In this document: positions 53,006 through 64,000 of the stretch, piece after piece
Numbering within the stretch: the stretch's first letter is position 1
Layout: each line of letters starts with the position of its first letter
Source of the DNA: a virus
IMG/VR virus record: IMGVR_UViG_3300013014_001174
Location: 1 to 64,000 of that record
Strand: one strand, 5' to 3'
Length of the DNA stretch: 64,000 bases
The notes under the pieces: model-generated
Seen by the model: the letters and a program-made list of their open reading frames with translations, nothing else
What the model was told of the DNA's origin: nothing
Database searches by the model: none
Position numbers and translations under genes: made by a program

Positions 53006-54247
53006 ATGAAACAAAATATCAATGAAGAATTAAATTATATAAAATATCTTTTAGGTTATCAAAAAGGTGTTGTAATTTCCGAACAAACAACACCAGCGTC
53101 TGATACACCAATGCAACCACAAGCACAAGGTACACCAGTATCAGAACCAACTCAAGGTGGTGATGGATGTATTCCATTAACAATTAGTGGTAATTTTAAC
53201 CCTAAAAAATCAGATTCCACAGAATATTTAACAAACATAATTAGCCAACTTGACGCTCAAATTAAAAGTAAACCAGAATTTCAAGGTGGATCGGTAACAA
53301 GTATAAGAATTATTGGCGGTGCTAGTAATGTGGATAATGGTATTAAATCTGATTTTACATTAAATAATGATTACACACCAAGTGGTACAACACCGAAACA
53401 AACTAAAGAGTTTCAAAATAATATGAGTTATGCTCAAGCAAGAATTGATGCTTCTAAACAGCCAATATTAGATGAATTAAAAAAAGTTGGTTTAACTGTT
53501 AGTGTTGAACCCACAACCGAAACTCACGTTATTGACACTGGGGGTACAAGTGACTCAAAACGTAATTCAGGCACCTACCCAAATCCTGGTCAAGTTGTTA
53601 TAATCCAGATGACTATTTGTCCGGTAAAAGATGGTGCTGGACGTGAAGATTTTGATAAATTACCATATCTGAAACCGCAATTAATACCAACAACTTCAGG
53701 AGAAATAGTAAACAGAATTGAAAATTTAATAGAATGTTATGAAAATTCTGAAATAAGGATTTTTTATGGTGATCCAAAAAAAGGTCATTGGTGTCGTAAA
53801 GCTTTATATAATGTTTATGCTAACGGTATACAATTGAAAAGGGCTGATGGTAAAGATTATGCTTCTTTAAATAATGTTGGGGATAAGTTTGATAATGCGG
53901 AAATTATTAATGGGGAGAGGAGAAAAGAATGTGGTAGAGGAAATAGATGTGGTAGAAGTAATACATTTACTTTAGATAGAATTACAAATGAATCTTTCTT
54001 TAATAAAGATGTTTTATACAAACATAATGGTGGGTTAGTTATTACTGCAGAATGTACTGATAAAGGTCAAGGATCATATGATGGTAATTCAGACTGTCAT
54101 AATGACGTTGGTAATATTTCTTTCAAAATAAAAGGACTTGGTGAAGAAGTTAAGGAAGCTTCCGATACACCAAATATGTTCAATGTACCAAAAGAAATTG
54201 GAAATTTTGCCGCTTGTAAAACATTTAAACTTCAGGCAGCTAAATAA
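53006..54247 (+). CDS. Hypothetical protein, candidate internal head protein
   Basis: N-terminal INEELNYIKYLL...VISEQ. Confidence 0.65.
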   Translation: MKQNINEELNYIKYLLGYQKGVVISEQTTPASDTPMQPQAQGTPVSEPTQGGDGCIPLTISGNFNPKKSDSTEYLTNIISQLDAQIKSKPEFQGGSVTSIRIIGGASNVDNGIKSDFTLNNDYTPSGTTPKQTKEFQNNMSYAQARIDASKQPILDELKKVGLTVSVEPTTETHVIDTGGTSDSKRNSGTYPNPGQVVIIQMTICPVKDGAGREDFDKLPYLKPQLIPTTSGEIVNRIENLIECYENSEIRIFYGDPKKGHWCRKALYNVYANGIQLKRADGKDYASLNNVGDKFDNAEIINGERRKECGRGNRCGRSNTFTLDRITNESFFNKDVLYKHNGGLVITAECTDKGQGSYDGNSDCHNDVGNISFKIKGLGEEVKEASDTPNMFNVPKEIGNFAACKTFKLQAAK

Positions 54248-54252
54248 TCAAG

Positions 54253-54834
54253 TTACTTGTTATAATGTAACTTGATTATTGCTTTATCAATTTCAGAAAA
54301 TTTATTTGTATTACAACCACCTTGGTAAAAAACACTTTCTGGATACTTCCAAGAATCATTCATTAAACCTAGAGATTGTGTAATTTCTTCACGTAATACA
54401 CTTTTTAATTCAATACCACAAAGTCTTTCATTTATGAAAATATGACTTGTGTAGATTCTTGATTGATATACAACTGTCCCAACAAAACCCAAAAATTTAC
54501 CATTTATAGTAATGTTAGCCCTTTTTTTATATTCAGAAAAATCACAAAAATAAATAAAAGTATTAGCCTCTTTTTTATCCTTAGCAATTGAAATTGTAAT
54601 TGGGTCAATAAGATTGTTTAATTCATTAATGATAATTTTTGTATACTCTTTTATTGAATCATTGTCTTCAAAATCAAAAAATATCTTTACATCGTTTTTC
54701 CATTTTACAAAATTATGACTTGAGTCCCCGTATTCAGATTTTCCGGCGATTTCGTTATAATAATGAACCACAGAATCTTGACTAAAAGTTGTGGTTACAA
54801 AAAATAAAAATAGGGTTGTTATAATTGTTTTCAT
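54253..54834 (-). CDS. Secreted DUF2927-like (zincin-like) protein
   Basis: Signal peptide; LREEITQSLGLMNDS..YPESVFY. Confidence 0.65.
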   Translation of the reverse strand: MKTIITTLFLFFVTTTFSQDSVVHYYNEIAGKSEYGDSSHNFVKWKNDVKIFFDFEDNDSIKEYTKIIINELNNLIDPITISIAKDKKEANTFIYFCDFSEYKKRANITINGKFLGFVGTVVYQSRIYTSHIFINERLCGIELKSVLREEITQSLGLMNDSWKYPESVFYQGGCNTNKFSEIDKAIIKLHYNK

Positions 54835-54873
54835 ACAACAAAGATATAAAGTTTTTTTTAATATACAAAATTA

Positions 54874-55080
54874 TTATTCTTTGATTTTAAACCAACGTTT
54901 GAATAATTTTTCCCAAACATCCATTGCCGGATTAATAGCAACGAAAAAACCAATAGCACCAACAATAAAATTACCAATAGAAGATTCTGACTCCAAATAG
55001 TATTTGAATAGCCACAAGCCAACCCAAACAATGAAGAATGAAAGGATTGAGGACAATAAGAATAAAAGAAACTTTTTCAT
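54874..55080 (-). CDS. Small membrane protein
   Basis: Two hydrophobic segments. Confidence 0.6.
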   Translation of the reverse strand: MKKFLLFLLSSILSFFIVWVGLWLFKYYLESESSIGNFIVGAIGFFVAINPAMDVWEKLFKRWFKIKE

Positions 55081-55099
55081 AATATAAATTTAAAATTTG

Positions 55100-55182
55100 A
55101 TGTCAGGGTGGGAGTCGAACCCACAATGAGCAACCATCTTTAACAGATGGGATTAGCACCGGTGCCTTTTACACTCCTGACA
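55100..55182 (-). ncRNA. tRNA-like element, identity unclear
   Basis: Acceptor TGTCAGG/CCTGACA and T arm GTGGG-TTCGACT-CCCAC; non-canonical D and anticodon arms. Confidence 0.5.
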
Positions 55183-55345
55183 AACACGACTCTTCAGCAT
55201 TCTACTCCCAGCTCCGAGGAATTGTATCTAACTTAGCCCGTTACTCACCGCTGTACAGGTACTGAAGTTCATCGTCTTTTTCTTACCGTAAAGATAACTA
55301 AAATAAAGAACATAAACAATAATCCAATCATAATTTTATTTTTTT

Positions 55346-55420
55346 TGGCGGTCCCACCGGGAATCGAACCCGGCATACTGCCGTGACAGGGCAGCGTTAT
55401 AGCCGATTAACTACAGGACC
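55346..55420 (-). tRNA. tRNA-Asp(GTC)
   Basis: Cloverleaf, loop CTGTCAC, encoded CCA. Confidence 0.92.
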
Positions 55421-55634
55421 AAAGTTTCCCCACCTGAGATTAATGGTGAGTAGATATTCACAGTTTTTCTATTTGAAAACCCAACGTGTCTTACCACTTA
55501 AAAGTCAATCCTTACTTGGGGGAGAGGAGGATTTTCCAAACCGATTCCCAATGAGTACCACATTTACGCGATAGTACCAGCTTCGTTAAGTTTTGTATGA
55601 ACTTAAAAACATCTTGAGTATCTCTCACTCATTG

Positions 55635-55706
55635 TAGTCCCACCGGGAGTCGAACCCGACTTTTCAGGATGAAAACCTGACGACCTAACCGATAGTCGAT
55701 GGGACC
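55635..55706 (-). tRNA. tRNA-Glu(TTC)
   Basis: Cloverleaf, loop TTTTCAT. Confidence 0.9.
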
Positions 55707-55717
55707 ATTTTGTTTTA

Positions 55718-55999
55718 TTACAAACCTAACATTTCACCAACTTTTTTGAAATGTTTTTCAATCTTATTCAAAGCAGCCGTAGCCTTTTGTTTGGTCTTGA
55801 AGTACACGTAGAACTGACCACTTTCAGAATCAAACTCACCTTCAATCTTTAAGACATCTTGTACAAAACTTTCAAACTCATACGCATCTTCCCAATTACG
55901 GATTGTGTTTTTGTTTGGGAATCCTGTCAAACAATAATCGGATCCTTCAATTTTTGTAATTTTTAAACCTACGGTTTTAATTGTCTCTGTGTTTGTCAT
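55718..55999 (-). CDS. Hypothetical protein
   Basis: ORF after promoter TATCTTTG (56027-56020). Confidence 0.7.
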   Translation of the reverse strand: MTNTETIKTVGLKITKIEGSDYCLTGFPNKNTIRNWEDAYEFESFVQDVLKIEGEFDSESGQFYVYFKTKQKATAALNKIEKHFKKVGEMLGL

Positions 56000-56352
56000 A
56001 GTTATTTATTTTTGTTCTACAAAGATATGTAATCTATTTTAATCTACCAAATCTTTTTTTAAATTTTTTTTGTGGGACCCGCTCCCCACTCTGAACTTGT
56101 ACTTCGTTCTTTTAAGCGTTTTTTTTAAGTTCTCCAACCAGCCAGTATTCGTGTTAACTCTAATCATTTTAACTTTTGATGACTCTGAAGTACCTGATAA
56201 AATTTCTCTCATCATTTATTCGTATTAATTGTTTATTTTTGAGCGGAAGACTTCCGCAAAATAAAAATCAACATTGCTATCAGGATTTAAACGTCGCTCA
56301 GAATACTTACTGACGCCCACTGGTTGGGTACAGTGACTAGTTGATCTTTTTG

Positions 56353-56433
56353 TACTGATGGTTGGATTCGAACCAACGTTTTAAACTTACCGCTACAGGC
56401 ATAGACGATATAAGCGTCCACTGGTACATCAGC
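56353..56433 (-). tRNA. Atypical tRNA-like gene, anticodon TAT (Ile), D-arm absent
   Basis: Acceptor GCTGATG/CATCAGT; GGACG-CTTATAT-CGTCT; T arm GTTGG-TTCGAAT-CCAAC. Confidence 0.5.
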
Positions 56434-56512
56434 GTAATCGTCAGTCTCTCCTGACCGTCACCCCTAACCCACAGGTATTACCCGTATCGTAGTAAAGCTT
56501 GGTTTGCTATAG

Positions 56513-56584
56513 TAGCGTGTCGTGGATTTGAACCACCCCGTAGACGTTATGAGCGTCCCATGCAACCAATTACACCTTCACGCG
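56513..56584 (-). tRNA. tRNA with CAT anticodon (Met-type), degenerate stems
   Basis: GGACG-CTCATAA-CGTCT; mismatches at 1:72, 7:66 and in the T stem. Confidence 0.65.
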
Positions 56585-57140
56585 ATATATCTATTTTTCC
56601 GTTATCAAACTCCCAATGATGATTAGGACATAAACCGATTAAATTATCAATTGAGTTTATGTTTCTTATTAATTCATCACCACCAAAAGACGAAACTGAG
56701 TTTATATGACAAACCTCAACATGATTAGAATATCCACATATTAAACATTCTTTTTTTGTTGTGTGTTTATTAAAAACATAATGTGCGTGTTTTCTAACTA
56801 CAGCCCTAAATTTATAATAAACTCCGTGTTTTTCATATAGTTCTTTTTTTGTCATATCTAACAAAAATTCAAACTTTTCTTTTTTTTCTTTTTTAATACC
56901 TTCAACTACTTTTTTTTCTCTTTTCAGTTCTCTAACTTTATTGTTATAAGTCGCAGAACAAGAACTATTACAAAAAGTTTTTTTTCTTACGTGTCTTGGT
57001 TTTTCACTTTCTTTAACCTCAATTATTTTACCACAATTTTTACAAATCTTTGGGTTATCATAATAATTTTTCAAAGAACGCTCTTGTAAAATTTTCTTTG
57101 TTGTTTGTGCTCCTTTCTGATATTTGTTAAGTTTTTCCAT
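56547..57140 (-). CDS. HNH endonuclease
   Basis: CKNC and FCNSSC Zn motifs; CLICG...VCHI...NLIGLCPNHH. Confidence 0.85.
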   Translation of the reverse strand: MEKLNKYQKGAQTTKKILQERSLKNYYDNPKICKNCGKIIEVKESEKPRHVRKKTFCNSSCSATYNNKVRELKREKKVVEGIKKEKKEKFEFLLDMTKKELYEKHGVYYKFRAVVRKHAHYVFNKHTTKKECLICGYSNHVEVCHINSVSSFGGDELIRNINSIDNLIGLCPNHHWEFDNGKIDISREGVIGCMGRS

Positions 57141-57223
57141 ATATATAAATATATATTAAAGCTCAAAAATACCTATCACTACAAACTTTTTTTAGAGAAA
57201 TCAACTTTATCTCCCGCGATATG

Positions 57224-57329
57224 TAGTCAAAGAAGGATTCGAACCTTCACGGAATAAGTGTAATAGTTACCTTATTCCAAGGAGTTTTGAGTATTATCTC
57301 CCAGCGTCTGCCAATTCCGCCACTTGACT
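57224..57329 (-). tRNA. Atypical tRNA-Leu(CAA)-like gene with enlarged anticodon loop and long variable arm
   Basis: Leu-type D arm GCG-GAATTGGCAGA-CGC; loop ATAATACTCAAAA; 28-nt variable hairpin; canonical T arm. Confidence 0.55.
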
Positions 57330-57560
57330 ATTTAGACTTGTAATTTAGTAGTTGACTCAAACTCTCGTTTCACCATCTTGAGTCAACAGGTTAATGCACT
57401 TTACGAGTTTCCCGTTTCTTACAACCACTTGTCTTTAACAAAGATATGTATTTTATTTCAATCTACCAAATCTTTTTTAAACTTTTTTTTTCTTGTGTAT
57501 TTCTTTTTATTACGATACACATTTGGCCTTGTTGCCATCATAATCTCCTGGTATGTAATC

Positions 57561-57866
57561 TCAATTGTTTTCATCGTTATACAATCTTTGAACGTGACTA
57601 ATTATTTTATTTATATCTTCTTTTGTTTGGAAACCTAAAACATCATTTGTTAATATTGTATCATAACAAATTTTCCAATTACCCTTCCTTCCTTTAATTA
57701 TTGCAACCTCCCAGGTTTTATCGTCTGTATAAGACGAATATCTGGTACTATAAGGATGTTTATATCTTACAACTGAAAGTCCGTATCCACCAGGAAAAAA
57801 TATCAATCCGTGAACACCATCTCCAGATGTGTGTGGTTTAAATTCTATATCATCAAATGTTATCAT
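57561..57866 (-). CDS. Hypothetical protein
   Basis: 101-aa ORF after TACTTTTG (57878-57871). Confidence 0.7.
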   Translation of the reverse strand: MITFDDIEFKPHTSGDGVHGLIFFPGGYGLSVVRYKHPYSTRYSSYTDDKTWEVAIIKGRKGNWKICYDTILTNDVLGFQTKEDINKIISHVQRLYNDENN

Positions 57867-57913
57867 AAGACAAAAGTATAAATAATTTTTTAATTATCAA
57901 AATTTCAAAGAAC

Positions 57914-58043
57914 AAAAAAACCCACCTCTTTTGGAGATGGGTTTCAAAATTTATTATGCATTAATTTATCATACCATCTCCTTATAGGAACAATCCTCAG
58001 CTATCGCCAATCCGCCTAATAATATGATATGTAAATTTTTCAT
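57914..58043 (-). promoter_or_regulatory. Putative attenuator 2: leader ORF 58043-57969 (MKNLHIILLGGLAIAEDCSYKEMV) plus terminator 57944-57914
   Basis: GGAGATGG in the last leader codons is exactly complementary to CCATCTCC in the terminator 5' arm. Confidence 0.65.
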
Positions 58044-58044
58044 T

Positions 58045-58581
58045 TTAGTATCTATTATTTCTACTTTTATCGGATTTTCCGTAATGGTGTCCCGATTGGT
58101 ATTTATCATAACCTTTTCTTTTAAACCAAGCGGCGTCTCTAAGAGTATTACTTGCTAAAGCGTAAACCCCTAAAGCTGCAGCAATTCCCCCACTTATAAA
58201 CATTGCTGCTGGAATAACTGCCAATCCAGCACCAACTGAACTATAAGTAATAATTTTATCAAGAATATTTCTTATTTTGTATTCAGTATCACCCATTTCT
58301 TCTTCATCATCTTCCGTTAATACAGACTCCAGAGAATCCTTAATCATAGATTGTAAAGATTTGATACCGTTACTTTCTATAAAATCACGTAACATATCTT
58401 GTTCTTCAGAACTCAATCGTTCTGTCGCTTTTTTACTACTTTGTTCTAATTCCATTTTTGAAACGTCCACATCTGATTCCATATCTTCAGATTGTGAAAT
58501 CCATTCTTCTTCATTTTCTTTAATCACTCGTCTAACAATTCTTGCTAAATCTGATTCTGTTAATCTAATAATTCTTTTCAT
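58045..58581 (-). CDS. Hypothetical protein with LTESDL motif and a hydrophobic segment
   Basis: MKRIIRLTESDLARIVRRVIKE. Confidence 0.7.
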   Translation of the reverse strand: MKRIIRLTESDLARIVRRVIKENEEEWISQSEDMESDVDVSKMELEQSSKKATERLSSEEQDMLRDFIESNGIKSLQSMIKDSLESVLTEDDEEEMGDTEYKIRNILDKIITYSSVGAGLAVIPAAMFISGGIAAALGVYALASNTLRDAAWFKRKGYDKYQSGHHYGKSDKSRNNRY

Positions 58582-58635
58582 ATCAACATTTTAATATAAA
58601 TATAACAGTATACAAAAAAAAACAATAAAGTTTTG

Positions 58636-58715
58636 TACCCCCGGAGAGACTCGAACTCTCACACCCTTCGGCACTGGTGTCTAAAACCAGCATGTCTGCA
58701 TTCCATCACAGGGGC
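58636..58715 (-). tRNA. tRNA-Leu(TAG)
   Basis: CTGGT-TTTAGAC-ACCAG, variable arm, T arm. Confidence 0.88.
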
Positions 58716-58724
58716 ATTTATTTG

Positions 58725-58796
58725 AGGACCTAATTGGAATCAAACCAATCTAACCGGTTTTGCAGACCGGCACCTAAATCTCTCGGCCATAGGTCC
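58725..58796 (-). tRNA. tRNA-Cys(GCA)
   Basis: CCGGT-CTGCAAA-ACCGG, U73. Confidence 0.88.
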
Positions 58797-58801
58797 TTAT
58801 A

Positions 58802-59257
58802 TTAACGGCAGTGATGATCTGCCGCTTTTGTTGCAATTTGATTGTCAGGTTTAATATTTGTTTTATAACCCAACGACGTTGCCCACCCAACAACAGGTTG
58901 AACCAATTTTGAACTGAAATGTTTTTCTTGACTATTATAATCTAAATCAATCTCAACTATCACCTTCACTTTCTGGGTTAACCATTCGGCAACCTCAATT
59001 GAATAATCGGCCTCATTCCAAAGACGTGTCCATTTGTCTTTAATTTTTTTCACTTTCTGTTTATGTAGTATGTAGTGAACACCACGATTTCCATACCGGT
59101 ATGCAATAACCGTAACATAAATTGTACTTCTTCTGTGATTTTGTGAATCTGTACCAATGTGGACCTCAACCCAGGGACATTCTTTCAGAACATCTAAGGT
59201 ATGTTTTACCACATCAGGAATTGTTTCACCGTTAACCGTTCTAAATACTCTGTTCAT
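58802..59257 (-). CDS. RNase H-like YkuK/DUF458 family protein
   Basis: HIGTDSQ, RLWNEADYS, IDLDYN, IKP...A...AD. Confidence 0.75.
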   Translation of the reverse strand: MNRVFRTVNGETIPDVVKHTLDVLKECPWVEVHIGTDSQNHRRSTIYVTVIAYRYGNRGVHYILHKQKVKKIKDKWTRLWNEADYSIEVAEWLTQKVKVIVEIDLDYNSQEKHFSSKLVQPVVGWATSLGYKTNIKPDNQIATKAADHHCR

Positions 59258-59274
59258 TATTTCTATTTATTTTG

Positions 59275-59347
59275 TGGACAGGGAGGGTGTCGAACCCCCG
59301 ACTCCAGGATCTTCAATCCTGAGCTCTACCAACTGAGCTACCTGTCC
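59275..59347 (-). tRNA. tRNA-Phe(GAA)
   Basis: CAGGA-TTGAAGA-TCCTG, canonical D arm. Confidence 0.92.
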
Positions 59348-59351
59348 AGTG

Positions 59352-59432
59352 TGGAAGTGGTAGGGGTCGAACCTACACGCCTTTCGGACTTGATTTACAG
59401 TCAAGCGAGCCAGCCAAATGCTCAACACTTCC
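59352..59432 (-). tRNA. tRNA-Tyr(GTA)
   Basis: CTTGA-CTGTAAA-TCAAG, variable arm. Confidence 0.9.
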
Positions 59433-59442
59433 TTATTATTTG

Positions 59443-59516
59443 TACACTCTACAGGGGTCGAACCTGTGACCTTTTGCGTATCAGACAAACGCTACTACCA
59501 TCTGAGCTAAGAGTGT
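59443..59516 (-). tRNA. tRNA-Ile(GAT)
   Basis: TTTGT-CTGATAC-GCAAA. Confidence 0.9.
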
Positions 59517-59586
59517 GTTTTAGTTTCTTGGAACGAAGATAACCATTTTTTGGTAATTATCGTTCTTTTTTACTAAATTTTTTTTG

Positions 59587-59657
59587 TTCCCCCGGACGGT
59601 AACGCTCCGACTTCTTTCCGTTAAAAGCGGAAAGCTTCACTTTAAAGCTTCGAGGGA
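59587..59657 (-). tRNA. tRNA-Lys(TTT), non-canonical T loop
   Basis: TTCCG-CTTTTAA-CGGAA; T loop AGCGTTA. Confidence 0.75.
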
Positions 59658-59716
59658 TTCTGTTTGTCATACTTGTCACTTTCCATAACACTTGTTTTTA
59701 TTTGTTTATTTATTAG

Positions 59717-59787
59717 TCGAATGTGTACGAATCGAACGTCTCCCGAATGTCCCAAACATCCTGTGCAACCATTACACCACACACTCG
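59717..59787 (-). tRNA. tRNA-Pro(TGG)
   Basis: GGATG-TTTGGGA-CATTC; weak T stem. Confidence 0.75.
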
Positions 59788-59802
59788 TTATTTTTTTTTT
59801 TG

Positions 59803-59887
59803 CTACGGGGGGAGGGATCGAACCTCCAATGGTAATTTACCTCCAGGGTCAAAACCTGGTGACTTTGCCTAATTCGTCTACCCCGCA
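59803..59887 (-). tRNA. tRNA-Gln(TTG) with long variable arm
   Basis: TGCGGGG/CCCCGTA with G73; CCAGG-TTTTGAC-CCTGG; variable region AGGTAAATTACCATT. Confidence 0.75.
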
Positions 59888-59895
59888 ATTTACAG

Positions 59896-59979
59896 AGGAG
59901 AGATGAGGTGTCGATCCCCATACCTTTCAGTACCAACCGTTTTCAAGACGGTGTCACAAGCCGTTGTGATTATCTCTCC
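59896..59979 (-). tRNA. tRNA-Ser(TGA)
   Basis: ACCGT-CTTGAAA-ACGGT, long variable arm. Confidence 0.85.
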
Positions 59980-60019
59980 TTTTATGAAACCAATATGTCA
60001 AAGAACTTTTTCTTTTTTG

Positions 60020-60092
60020 AGGTTCCTATCAGGGTCGAACTGATGACTCCGGGTTACAAAGCCGGGATATTACCAAACTATACTAAGGAACC
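60020..60092 (-). tRNA. tRNA-Thr(TGT)
   Basis: Acceptor GGTTCCT/AGGAACC; loop TTTGTAA; C:C mismatch at 31:39. Confidence 0.78.
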
Positions 60093-60106
60093 AAATTTTT
60101 GGGTAT

Positions 60107-60279
60107 AAAAAAACCCGAACTGTTTTGAGTCCGGGTCTTATATTCCTTTTTATTTTTGTTAATCTTTATCAACTCATAAATGAAAACGCCCTAATATGCG
60201 ACTTAAACGTAAGATACACGTTAAACGACCACTGAATGCTCGGATTACAAATGTTCATATGTTTATTAGTTGTTTTCAT
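60107..60279 (-). promoter_or_regulatory. Putative attenuator 1: leader ORF 60279-60169 (36 aa) plus terminator 60136-60107
   Basis: Promoter TATCTTTG (60340-60333), then leader ORF, then ACCCGGAC/GTTCGGGT-T6 hairpin, then tRNA-Thr about 15 nt later. Confidence 0.65.
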
Positions 60280-60377
60280 TTTTTGTTTTGTTATAAATAT
60301 ACTGTTATTACTAAAAGTTTTAATTTCTGTTACAAAGATAGGTTATTTTTTTTAATTGACAAGTTTTTTTATTTTAT

Positions 60378-60644
60378 TTATCTTCTTCTTCTTGCTTCTT
60401 GGAATATTTTTTCAAACACATCCCCCATACCGGCACCATTTGCACTCACTCTTTTCCCTAAAATTGACTCAATATCCGAAAACTCCTCACTTGTCATTAT
60501 ATCACTAGTTTTAGATAAAAAATTTCTAAAAAACCTATCTGGAATATCGTCCATAGTTTTTTTCTTACCTTCTTTGTCTTCATTAATAACTTGTCTAACA
60601 ATTCTTGTTAAATCTGATTCTGTTAGTTTAACTACTTTTTTCAT
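60378..60644 (-). CDS. Hypothetical protein with LTESDL motif
   Basis: MKKVVKLTESDLTRIVRQVINE. Confidence 0.7.
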   Translation of the reverse strand: MKKVVKLTESDLTRIVRQVINEDKEGKKKTMDDIPDRFFRNFLSKTSDIMTSEEFSDIESILGKRVSANGAGMGDVFEKIFQEARRRR

Positions 60645-60672
60645 AATCTTTTATTTATAAATATATTATTAT

Positions 60673-61113
60673 TTAGTATTCCCAAGATTTTTTTTTCGGC
60701 CCTTCAGAACTACATATTATTGGTTCGTCAATAATATTCCAACGTCTATGTTCTATTTCTTCCATTAATTCTTCATCAAATTCTTCGTGGTCTAACATTC
60801 CATCCAAAATTTCATAGGTCCTTTCAATATTTCCACAAATAAAATCACTAACATATTCTGGTGTTGGTCCACTTACCGGTAATTCAGCTGTTATCATATA
60901 TTCACCGTCATTATAGTTATCACAAATTAATACAGCACCGAATTTTGAATATTCTCTATTTGTTACTTTATTTTCAGCAACTTTAATTTTACAAGCAACT
61001 CCTGTTCTTGGGTGTGTATATTTAAGGTCTTCTTCGGAATACTTTTCTTCTTTAATAATTCTTTTAATAAGTCTTATTAAATCAGATTCCGTTAGTATTA
61101 CTTTTTTCTTCAT
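60673..61113 (-). CDS. Hypothetical protein with LTESDL motif
   Basis: MKKKVILTESDLIRLIKRIIKEE. Confidence 0.7.
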   Translation of the reverse strand: MKKKVILTESDLIRLIKRIIKEEKYSEEDLKYTHPRTGVACKIKVAENKVTNREYSKFGAVLICDNYNDGEYMITAELPVSGPTPEYVSDFICGNIERTYEILDGMLDHEEFDEELMEEIEHRRWNIIDEPIICSSEGPKKKSWEY

Positions 61114-61208
61114 AGATATAAATATCTTGAAGGTATGAAAAATAATCTTCAGAGTTTATAAATTCATTGTGTATTTGTTCAAATATATCTTCCATACTAT
61201 TTTTTTAG

Positions 61209-61283
61209 TGATCCCGGAAGGATTTGAACCTTCAACCCTCGCCTTAGAAGGGCGATGCTCTAATCCAATTGAGCTACGGGACC
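61209..61283 (-). tRNA. tRNA-Arg(TCT)
   Basis: TCGCC-CTTCTAA-GGCGA, canonical D arm. Confidence 0.92.
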
Positions 61284-61506
61284 AAGTTTTAAATCTCTTT
61301 AACTTCGTATGTGTGTCCAGAATCTGAATTTAATTCAAATATCTCTCTCATTTTTTTAGCTTCCTCAAGTGAATTAAATTCTAAAATTTCAGATTCACTA
61401 TTTAATATGATAACAGGAACTCTTTTTTTGTTATCATTCATTTTAATGTGTTTAATTATTACGTACATATTTTTTTATTAAATTATACCAATAAAAAAAT
61501 GATAAA

Positions 61507-63327
61507 TCAAATTCTTAAAGAGTCTTTTCCAATATTAAAACCACCACCTTTTGGATTTTGTGTTTTTTTATTAACCAAAACACCTTTTGCTTTATTTGCT
61601 AATGAATTTTTATCAATTGGTCTTTCTATTTCATTTTCTTGTTTTACTTGACTAATTGGTGGCCTTTCTTTTATTTGTGATTGTGGTCTATGTTTAATTT
61701 CTTCTCTTGTATAATTCCTAATAGGTTGTGGTTGTGAGTCTTTAGTTTGTAACAGACTTAAAGGAGATATGTTTTTTTCAACTCTTGGTATATTTGGACT
61801 TTTAATTTCTTTTTTTGGTGTTGTTAGTGTTTGTGTATGAAGTATAACATAAGGTTCAATAACCATATTCTGTATTGGTCCAACAGAATTTCTTTGTCTT
61901 GCTAAAGTCCCATAATGTGCTCTTAATTTTGATCCCATCCCTGTGTCTGGTCTACTTGTTAAACCATTTTTGTGTATTCTTCTATAAAAATTAATTTTAT
62001 TTGTAAATTTAAATTTATATTGTTTTGTACCGTATAGTCTACCCATAAAATCTGAATCTGCAGCACACATCCAAGGTTCAAACCCATTCATATATTCAAA
62101 TATATCTTTTTTAATTGCAAATACACCTTCACCAATGTGTTTTTTTGTTTGAGAATTAAATGGTTTTCCATCGATAAAATTTGTATAATATGGTTTTACA
62201 CAGTCGTGAGTCATAAGACCATTAATCGAATCCTCAACCATATTTAAATTCATAATATCATCTGAACCAAAAAATAAAATGTTTTTAGAAAGTGCCAGTT
62301 TAGATAAAGTATTAAACACAATATAAGGACCGTTGTTCTTTTTAAAAAAGAAAAATTCAAAATAACCTGGATAACTATGTGATTCTATATGTTCCTTTGA
62401 TTCAATACAAGAATCAATACCAACTAAAACTTGTACCTTTTTTCCACCAATGGAATTAATAATAGAATCAAAACACTCTTCCAAATATTGTGTGTTTAGA
62501 TATGTTGATATTATTATTGTAAGTTCATATATGGATGTTGAATCTATTGAATTTTTTATATTATTATTCCAACCTAAATCATTAACATTTAAATTTGTTT
62601 TTGAGAAAATATTTGGTTTTGTATCAAAATATGATTCTCTGGCATGACTTATATTATTATGACCGTGTGTGTCAACACTATCATTATAGAGTTCATCATC
62701 AAAGTATCTTCTGAAATTTCTGGAAGATTGTTTACAAGAAATTATTGAGTAATTATATATGTACCCATCAATACCTTTTTTCAAAGGTGAAAACGACAAT
62801 GTTTTTATGTATTCCGTTTTTAATGACATATTAAGATTTGTAAAACCTTTATAGTCATATAAAATAACCCTATCACTTATAAATGAATAAAAATAACCTT
62901 TTGTTTGGTCATACCAATCATAGTCTTCATTTACAATTTTTTCATAACTTATTTTAAGTCTTGTTTTTGGTGAATAACAATCGGCAGCTTGAAGTAAAAA
63001 ACATTTTGATGAGTCACTTACGTTTTTTCCAATTTCAATCCATTTTTCAACTAAAGAAACTTTTTCATTATTTGTTATATATACAATTCTTGAGCAATTA
63101 ACCAATTTTAGTTTTTCGATATACAAATCAAATAGTTCTGGAAATACAGATTGTTCGTGTTTTTCTTCATAAACAATTAATTCCCAATTAAAATCAATAT
63201 TGATTTGTTCACATAAACTTTCTATAGATATCCAAGCAATTTTTTTACTATTGTAAACTGGAAGTGCTACAGTTAATTCCGACACTGTGTCGTTCTCAAA
63301 GATGGTTTGTACTATTGTTTGATTCAT
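61507..63327 (-). CDS. Tandem two-domain GT2-like glycosyltransferase with basic low-complexity tail
   Basis: LTVALPVYN...QAADC and LTIIISTY...FGSDD...AADSDF domains. Confidence 0.75.
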   Translation of the reverse strand: MNQTIVQTIFENDTVSELTVALPVYNSKKIAWISIESLCEQINIDFNWELIVYEEKHEQSVFPELFDLYIEKLKLVNCSRIVYITNNEKVSLVEKWIEIGKNVSDSSKCFLLQAADCYSPKTRLKISYEKIVNEDYDWYDQTKGYFYSFISDRVILYDYKGFTNLNMSLKTEYIKTLSFSPLKKGIDGYIYNYSIISCKQSSRNFRRYFDDELYNDSVDTHGHNNISHARESYFDTKPNIFSKTNLNVNDLGWNNNIKNSIDSTSIYELTIIISTYLNTQYLEECFDSIINSIGGKKVQVLVGIDSCIESKEHIESHSYPGYFEFFFFKKNNGPYIVFNTLSKLALSKNILFFGSDDIMNLNMVEDSINGLMTHDCVKPYYTNFIDGKPFNSQTKKHIGEGVFAIKKDIFEYMNGFEPWMCAADSDFMGRLYGTKQYKFKFTNKINFYRRIHKNGLTSRPDTGMGSKLRAHYGTLARQRNSVGPIQNMVIEPYVILHTQTLTTPKKEIKSPNIPRVEKNISPLSLLQTKDSQPQPIRNYTREEIKHRPQSQIKERPPISQVKQENEIERPIDKNSLANKAKGVLVNKKTQNPKGGGFNIGKDSLRI

Positions 63328-63472: not shown

Positions 63473-64000
63473 TTAGTATCCATTTCTTTTTATGTTTGTT
63501 AAAATTTTAGTTAAAGTAGATTCTGTAAGTTTTAAATTTTTCTTTTTTGTTATTGCTTCGCTTAAATTTTTCTTAACTGTTTTTCTTACTGATTCGTAAA
63601 CTGCAAAACCTTCTCTATAAAAGTCTTTATCTATAAAATTGTTATTTGTAATTTCAACACCATTAACTTCTTCGCCTCTTAATAGTTTAATTATATCATT
63701 CATATCTAATTTTTTCTTAAACATACCAAAAGGTAATCGATCTTGATCTACATTTAGGAAATCGTCTTCTGTTAAAGGTCCTAATTGTTTTAATTCTCTA
63801 CGAACATCGCCTTTGGCTAAACATCTTTCAAATTCATCTAATTTTTCTCTATTACCTTTAGTTGATCTTGATGCTGCAAATGCAGTATTTAAATACATAA
63901 TTAATTCATCTCTTAATGTTTCTGCATTACATTCAATAGACATAGTACTAGCAGCACTACGACCCATTTGAGTTTGATAAATAGGTAAAGTTGATTTTGT
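63473..64000 (-). CDS. Partial CDS (start lies beyond the window)
   Basis: Frame is open to the window edge; C-terminal KLTESTLTKIL motif. Confidence 0.6.
   Translation of the reverse strand, partial: TKSTLPIYQTQMGRSAASTMSIECNAETLRDELIMYLNTAFAASRSTKGNREKLDEFERCLAKGDVRRELKQLGPLTEDDFLNVDQDRLPFGMFKKKLDMNDIIKLLRGEEVNGVEITNNNFIDKDFYREGFAVYESVRKTVKKNLSEAITKKKNLKLTESTLTKILTNIKRNGY

Follow-up and report, generated by a model that had tools for sequence, protein, structure and literature searches.

Leader-peptide attenuators include the classic four-segment attenuators trpL and hisL, and the multivalent enterobacterial leaders, of which that of ilvGMEDA senses Ile, Val and Leu and that of thr senses Thr and Ile. 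In the T-box riboswitches of Firmicutes, which regulate synthetase and amino-acid genes, uncharged transfer RNA (tRNA) is bound directly and translation is not involved. Genes for tRNAs are usually thought to be controlled by promoters only. Here we analysed a 64,000-nucleotide (nt) stretch of phage DNA, positions 1 to 64,000 of IMGVR_UViG_3300013014_001174 (hereafter the window), which is part of a 78-kb IMG/VR virus record from lake water with a G+C content of 30%. On its minus strand, a promoter, a 36-codon open reading frame (ORF) and an intrinsic terminator precede an operon of tRNA genes. We put at roughly 55% the probability that this region controls the main tRNA operon of the phage from its 5' end, as a member of a conserved family of leader-peptide transcription attenuators. 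If so, tRNA genes would be regulated by the oldest known RNA switch, and the sensed molecule would be the gene product itself, read via decoding speed. This would also explain how large phages dose their tRNA arrays under codon mismatch, host shut-off and tRNA-cleaving defences.

Like the ilv and thr leaders, the region combines a promoter, a short leader ORF and an intrinsic terminator, to which a candidate alternative helix on the terminator 5' arm is added in the family; we propose that here, too, ribosome position selects read-through or termination and more than one amino acid is sensed. Unlike those leaders, it would regulate tRNA genes, whose product would be sensed directly by its use in decoding; where those leaders have runs for one to three amino acids, it carries roughly a single codon per tRNA species, for about 15 species; and it is borne by a phage of a Bacteroidota host, with an antiterminator that is weak in the window copy. 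The proposed coupling of tRNA status to a terminator/antiterminator choice resembles that of T-box riboswitches. Rfam gave no T-box hit at E <= 1 in 54000-62000, which rules out T-box identity. Beyond tRNAs, the only Rfam match on the region was a sub-threshold one to Thr_leader (RF00506; 60104-60189, 22.7 bits against a gathering threshold of 55, E = 0.88); we rejected membership of that family, the match being a chance-level terminator resemblance.

The nearest published case that we found is the trn operon of Anabaena, a long, horizontally mobile tRNA array whose expression is raised by translational stress (PMC8421152, PMC10272220). Both systems have an HNH endonuclease gene in the vicinity. 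In Anabaena, control is exerted at the promoter via direct repeats bound by the repressor TrcR, to which the abstract of PMC10272220 attributes it, unlike the attenuation proposed here; neither 'attenuat' nor 'leader' occurs in PMC8421152. A full-text literature search of partial coverage returned no account of leader-peptide attenuation of tRNA genes. By analogy, the mechanism would be the one known from the trp, his and ilv leaders, from which the region would differ in its tRNA-gene target and its one-codon-per-tRNA design.

The leader unit and its conservation

A first-pass annotation had reported a promoter, a 36-codon ORF, a terminator and tRNAs in this region, and all of these elements are present on the minus strand:

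60333..60362, minus strand: promoter P1, Bacteroidota sigma-A type, TTG-N19-TATCTTTG
60294..60323, minus strand: block in the 5' untranslated region, probable tandem promoter P2 (TTA, 19 nt, TATATTTA)
60169..60279, minus strand: leader ORF, 36 codons plus TGA, then TAA, with an A-rich region 5' of the ATG
60107..60139, minus strand: intrinsic terminator, 11-bp stem, 8-nt loop, seven T, -15.3 kcal/mol
58635..60092, minus strand: tRNA operon, delimited with ARAGORN, Rfam and Pfam

P1, of which 60340-60333 had been annotated earlier, is an exact match to the Bacteroidota motif TTG-N19-TAnnTTTG over 60362-60333; it is kept in homologues and is one of about eight near-identical copies on the minus strand between 48 and 60 kb. 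The block at 60294-60323 is almost invariant in 25 homologues and is homologous to the sole promoter (TTG-N19-TATATTTA) of a paralogous unit in relatives, module 2, described below; by this homology, 60323-60294 is probably a second, tandem promoter. A search for TAnnTTTG returned no site between 60333 and 57878 on the minus strand, a result that covers the consensus motif and is compatible with non-consensus promoters; on this evidence, at least tRNA-Thr would have to be transcribed through the hairpin. The earlier annotation had named a promoter downstream of the hairpin as a finding that would count against its reading, and no consensus promoter lies between hairpin and tRNA-Thr. The motif search is the informative scan here: a combined scan for sigma-70 promoters and terminators found no more sites than in shuffled sequences, and the terminator scanner, limited to loops of 3-8 nt, did not call the minus-strand hairpin.

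We searched for relatives with three probes, namely an RNaseH-like ORF inside the operon, the leader peptide and the promoter pattern. Against public phage records, blastn matches were limited to single tRNAs, with no annotated close relative. The comparison set for the leader of the window (leader 1) consists of 42 distinct homologues from lake-phage contigs, which fall into about five clades: A (the window and 16 others, 17 distinct sequences), B1, B2, C and D. The unit keeps its place in these relatives, with leader and terminator at the head of the tRNA array: tRNA-Thr(UGU) starts 11-15 nt after the T-tract in 40 of the 42 homologues, heading arrays of 9-16 tRNAs. In the window this distance is 14 nt (tRNA-Thr start at 60092).

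The leader frame is open in all 42 homologues, at lengths of 32-37 codons and with zero in-frame stops, versus 2.6 and 4.6 per sequence in the two alternative frames. All indels in the ORF are multiples of three, and flanking indels are not. In comparisons between clades the ratio of nonsynonymous to synonymous substitution rates (dN/dS) is about 1; inside clade A it is 0.2-0.5. Variation is spread about evenly over the three codon positions, and the codons CCG, TGG, TAT and ACG are nearly fixed, synonymous sites included. Retention of the frame without retention of the peptide sequence is the signature of a frame that requires translation and not of a functional peptide; what is conserved, as judged from these alignments, is the open frame and the codon set. 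Conservation of the ORF, one of the checks proposed earlier, was accordingly found in the relatives, and translation is predicted from it.

The terminator is conserved as a structure. RNAalifold on the homologues gave it as the sole conserved helix, with compensatory changes at five pairs and 95% of cells paired, and the hairpin described earlier at 60136-60107 between the promoter and the tRNAs extends over 60139-60107. In clade A only, an extra ACCC-containing stretch (60101-60106, minus strand) lies between the T-tract and tRNA-Thr and is able to pair with GGGT of the terminator 3' arm; it is absent from the other clades.

These data bear on the possibility that the unit makes a small non-coding RNA of about 200 nt, from promoter to terminator, in which the open frame is incidental. 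The window transcript does fold better than its shuffles (z = -2.99) and several synonymous sites are fixed, yet no conserved helix besides the terminator emerges, and a frame open in every homologue with exclusively in-frame indels would be hard to reconcile with an incidental ORF. We regard this explanation as very improbable.

We also compared the region with four RNA-library runs, each of them in the form of contigs. One lake metatranscriptome contained exact contigs over 60188-60364 and none over 60091-60161, although such contigs show neither RNA ends nor levels and DNA carry-over could contribute.

Codon content of the leader and the downstream tRNAs

The first-pass annotation had stated that the leader encodes all ten amino acids of its array and lacks Asp, Glu and Gly, and the codon content confirms this. 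In relatives, the full array serves 15 amino acids (Thr, Gln, Ser, Pro, Lys, Val, Tyr, Asn, Ile, His, Arg, Trp, Phe, Cys and Leu(CUN)), and all 15 are encoded in 40 of the 42 leaders, with Asp, Glu and Gly mostly absent. A 15-type set of this kind occurs in 0.2% of stop-free 36-codon windows in the genome and in 1.6% of composition-matched random frames, and the null probabilities span 0.2-1.7%. In neutral-drift simulations with the invariant columns fixed, the full set was retained with P = 0.07-0.27 per inter-clade branch. Moreover, the Cys, Gln, Val and His codons occupy differing leader positions in different clades, which fits selection on the codon set and not on the peptide.

Under strict wobble, the 16 anticodons of array 1 read 74% of leader codons, and 80% in the window, versus 53 +/- 10% in genes, while array-2 anticodons read 9% of leader 1 codons versus 29% in genes. 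The leader had also been described as rich in G-ending codons that look uncommon in this genome. We counted nine such codons in the window leader against 2.2 +/- 1.5 in 35-codon gene windows, of which 0.1% reach nine, and its mean ln RSCU (relative synonymous codon usage) lies below that of all 3157 gene windows of the phage.

Could the ORF instead be an independent micro-protein gene, complete with promoter and terminator, the tRNAs being expressed by leak-through or from unrecognised internal promoters? Seven residues are invariant in 17 representative aligned leaders (Met1, Lys2, Pro13, Trp17, Tyr22, Thr24 and Ser33), which together with the low dN/dS within clade A would suit a functional peptide. 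The region also holds many small genes that each have their own promoter, and a degenerate promoter copy (59541-59534) precedes tRNA-Ile. Against a micro-protein stand the dN/dS of about 1 between clades, the poorest codon usage of the 3157 gene windows, the lack of a Pfam match for the leader ORF and the fixed spacing of the unit before tRNA-Thr. We consider this explanation improbable. The degenerate copy spans 59534-59560 (minus strand), consists of TATCTTCG and an A-rich spacer without TTG, and lies 18 nt 5' of tRNA-Ile, where it may represent an internal promoter that is weak or has decayed.

A paralogous module with the complementary codon set

A search by nhmmer with the leader 1 model retrieved a second unit in the window:

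57917..58043, minus strand: module 2, a 24-codon ORF (58043-57969) followed by a terminator (57945-57917)

In relatives, the module 2 terminator is followed by tRNAs for Leu(UAA), Met, Ile(UAU), Gly, Glu, Asp and sometimes Ala. Exactly these amino acids abound in leader 2 and are avoided in leader 1, and array-2 anticodons can read about 49-52% of the leader 2 codons. The division extends to synonymous codons. Leu CTN and TTR codons stand at 74 : 3 in leader 1 and 1 : 78 in leader 2 (phage genes use 72% TTR), and Ile ATY and ATA codons at 73 : 2 and 12 : 39, counts that are phylogenetically non-independent yet come from several separate columns in two modules. These splits match Leu(UAG) and Ile(GAU) of array 1 and Leu(UAA) and Ile(UAU) of array 2. 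For the two leaders of the window, a 2x2 comparison of array-1- with array-2-readable codons gave a Fisher p of 2.8e-4.

We give even odds to the more specific proposal that these are 'polling' leaders, which would give autogenous feedback with about one codon per tRNA, the two paralogues dividing the genetic code between them, one for each tRNA operon, as far as the choice among synonymous codons for Leu and Ile. If this is true, such switches could be found, and tRNA operon boundaries assigned in metagenomic phages, by a simple sequence rule under which the codon set of a leader equals the set of anticodons encoded downstream of it. Locus by locus, tight matching of leader and array did not hold up as a claim: for codon loss against tRNA loss we have one anecdote, a copy without Arg codons that is also without Arg tRNAs, and the window itself contradicts it.

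Module 2 also carries an 8-bp antiterminator, in which GGAGATGG pairs with CCATCTCC, joining the last ORF codons to the terminator 5' arm. It is nearly as strong as the terminator it would oppose (-15.1 versus -16.2 kcal/mol, p = 0.01), and several compensatory variants occur among 24 distinct homologues.

In the window, module 2 abuts the stop codon of a gene for 178 amino acids and is followed by a promoter (57900-57871) and a gene for 101 amino acids, with no tRNA. Farther on lies an HNH endonuclease gene (57140-56547, minus strand, PF13391), amid weak tRNA-like Rfam hits at 57224-57329, 56513-56584 and 56353-56433; the region 56353-57329 (minus strand) is a disrupted remnant of a second tRNA cluster. 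Glu and Asp tRNAs are found after the HNH region, at 55706-55346.

Alternative folds at the terminator

The first-pass annotation had proposed an antiterminator formed by TTTATGAGTT and GACTCAAAA. This helix did not survive the folding analysis: it has 6 bp and -5.8 kcal/mol against -15.3 kcal/mol for the terminator, it was never selected in constrained or truncated folds, and its partner in the terminator loop varies even in close relatives. We therefore rejected it. A different helix would compete with the terminator in the homologues; it joins about codons 28-33 of the ORF to the terminator 5' arm and to the bases that immediately precede this arm. In clades C and D it reaches -19 to -25 kcal/mol and is stronger than the terminator (p <= 0.01 versus shuffles), and in clade B2 it reaches -13 to -16 kcal/mol (p <= 0.05). 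The values for clade B1 are -11 to -13 kcal/mol with p = 0.07-0.48. Over a 25-sequence alignment its covariation exceeds that of shuffled and slid controls, and one pair covaries with both of its alternative partners. Folding alternative structures, as had been suggested, thus yielded a competing helix in clades B2, C and D, and a window helix no better than shuffles, to which we return below.

In the window, the following elements of these folds can be located:

60180..60194, minus strand: antiterminator strand-2 remnant, TTAGGG at 60194-60189, then GTTTTCAT
60226..60242, minus strand: mid-ORF hairpin, CGAGCA with TGGTCG, candidate pause or segment-1 element
60158..60173, minus strand: short hairpin over the stop codon, GTTGAT / ATTAAC

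The mid-ORF hairpin has a mean pair probability of 0.4-0.5 over the homologues, with 90% of cells paired and one compensatory pair; its 3' strand is weakly complementary to the terminator 5' arm and is one of two such sites in the ORF in every clade. The stop-codon hairpin has a mean pair probability of 0.5-0.7 and a compensatory change at one pair. In addition, GTTTTCAT (within 60180..60194, minus strand) can pair with the start-codon region 60279-60272 at a pair probability of 0.5-0.8, and this helix between start codon and ORF end shows zero covariation.

To approximate the moment of decision, we folded transcripts cut just before the terminator 3' arm with a modelled ribosome. In clades B1, B2, C and D, 5'-arm occupancy dropped from about 0.7 to 0.1-0.3 once the ribosome had reached the final third of the ORF. 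As in trpL and hisL, the terminator 5' arm in clades B2, C and D and in module 2 is predicted to pair with the ORF 3' end, a competitor that would be removed by a ribosome at the end of the ORF. Unlike in trpL and hisL, there are no tandem regulatory codons, and segment 1 is present only as candidates, the pairing of start codon with ORF end and the mid-ORF hairpin, neither with covariation.

A proposed mechanism and its standing in the window

From these parts the following mechanism can be proposed. Transcription from P1, and probably also from the tandem P2, would have to cross the terminator 14 nt before tRNA-Thr, and the 36-codon leader would be translated during its own transcription. 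The leader would represent about one codon per tRNA species of the ancestral operon. Should any of these codons be decoded slowly, the ribosome would lag, the 3' third of the ORF would pair with the terminator 5' arm, and polymerase would read through into the tRNAs. With fast decoding, the ribosome would cover the 3' segment of the ORF, the terminator would form, and tRNA synthesis would be held down. The net effect would be negative feedback on the phage's own tRNA supply. In this scheme we infer that the leader is translated, that ribosome and polymerase are coupled, and that the unit responds to stalling. The annotation had linked stalling to anticodon nucleases, and any other cause of slow decoding fits equally well. 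Its attenuator reading stands in part, as the ORF, the terminator and their position are conserved and the codon match recurs in two modules; its antiterminator does not.

Several observations weigh against regulated attenuation, above all in the window copy. The alternative helix of clade A is at -5.5 to -11 kcal/mol no better than shuffles (p = 0.2-0.94), and that of the window has -8.0 kcal/mol with p = 0.85. At the homologous columns the window retains only TTAGGG against CCCGGA, about -6 to -8 kcal/mol, and clade A alone has a one-codon insertion in the middle of the antiterminator strand of the ORF. At equilibrium the terminator has a probability of about 0.99 in clades A and B at any ribosome position, so equilibrium alone gives no support for a switch there; a clean equilibrium switch was obtained only in two homologues, L011 and L012. 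In cut transcripts of the window, occupancy of the 5' arm changed only from about 0.5 to 0.3, and in one close relative it did not fall. The leader contains no runs of regulatory codons, and a single codon per tRNA may give only a short stall. The conserved G-ending codons lie partly at RNA pairing sites, so that their rarity need not reflect decoding speed. Moreover, tRNAs for Val, Asn, His, Arg and Trp are gone from the window array while the leader keeps their codons, which makes the match an ancestral one that is not tight in this genome. Lastly, because the homologues represent about five clades, all statistics rest on few independent lineages. On these models, regulated switching by the window copy is uncertain. 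Since the clade A antiterminator is rudimentary, this copy may be a weak or weakened switch, or a largely constitutive, leaky terminator.

The latter possibility can be generalized. The terminator might be a constitutively leaky one or a timing device throughout, giving a fixed low read-through from an early promoter or yielding at a later stage to an antitermination factor of phage or host origin; any role of the small ORF would then be confined to the stability of the short transcript. The shuffle-level competitor helix of clade A and the terminator predicted at every ribosome position agree with this explanation, and the element GTTCTTTGA, which recurs after the first tRNA and, in most relatives, after the module 2 terminator, could mark another control layer. 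What such a device leaves unexplained is an open frame with in-frame indels at a dN/dS of about 1, the codon match of two paralogous leaders to two tRNA clusters, and the covariation in the antiterminators of module 2 and of clades B2, C and D. We hold it to be unlikely. For leader-peptide attenuation, the series of clades from strong to rudimentary antiterminators offers natural variants for tests of the mechanism.

The tRNA operon and neighbouring genes

The operon runs in the order Thr(UGU), Ser(UGA), Gln(UUG), Pro, Lys, Ile(GAU), Tyr, Phe, RNaseH-like ORF, Cys and Leu(UAG). Nine of the ten tRNAs that had been annotated (Thr, Gln, Pro, Lys, Ile, Tyr, Phe, Cys and Leu) are called by ARAGORN at default settings; the tenth, Ser(UGA) at 59979-59895 (minus strand), has a poor D arm and for this reason is called at a relaxed threshold only. 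In relatives the order is Thr, Gln, (Ser), Pro, Lys, Val, Tyr, Asn, Ile, His, Arg, Arg, Trp, Phe, Cys and Leu.

The Rfam tRNA model left the Ser, Pro and Lys genes unmatched. Pro(UGG) at 59716-59787 and Lys(UUU) at 59586-59657 (both minus strand) are ARAGORN calls with no Rfam tRNA match at E <= 1, the T-stem of Pro(UGG) appears weak by eye, and the two may be decaying or non-canonical tRNAs. The class II tRNA shape is normally restricted to Leu, Ser and Tyr tRNAs. Here, Gln(UUG) at 59802-59887 (minus strand) has 86 nt and a long variable arm, which is a class II shape, and this long-armed Gln tRNA is kept in relatives as the second or third gene of the array. Directly 3' of tRNA-Thr, GTTCTTTGA is found at 59998-60006 (minus strand); a second copy, at 57905-57913 (minus strand), directly follows the module 2 terminator and is the one kept in most relatives.

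Between tRNA-Phe and tRNA-Cys lies the following gene:

58802-59257, minus strand: RNaseH-like ORF, PF04308, YkuK-type

It has 67-99% identity to counterparts in 65 viral contigs, within the tRNA array each time.

The neighbourhood also encodes a family of small proteins with the motif LTESDL-x-RI(V/I), at 60378-60644, 60673-61113 and 58045-58581 and at the C-terminus of 63473-63967 (minus strand). None of them has a Pfam match. The motif is N-terminal in three of these proteins and lies near the C-terminus in one.

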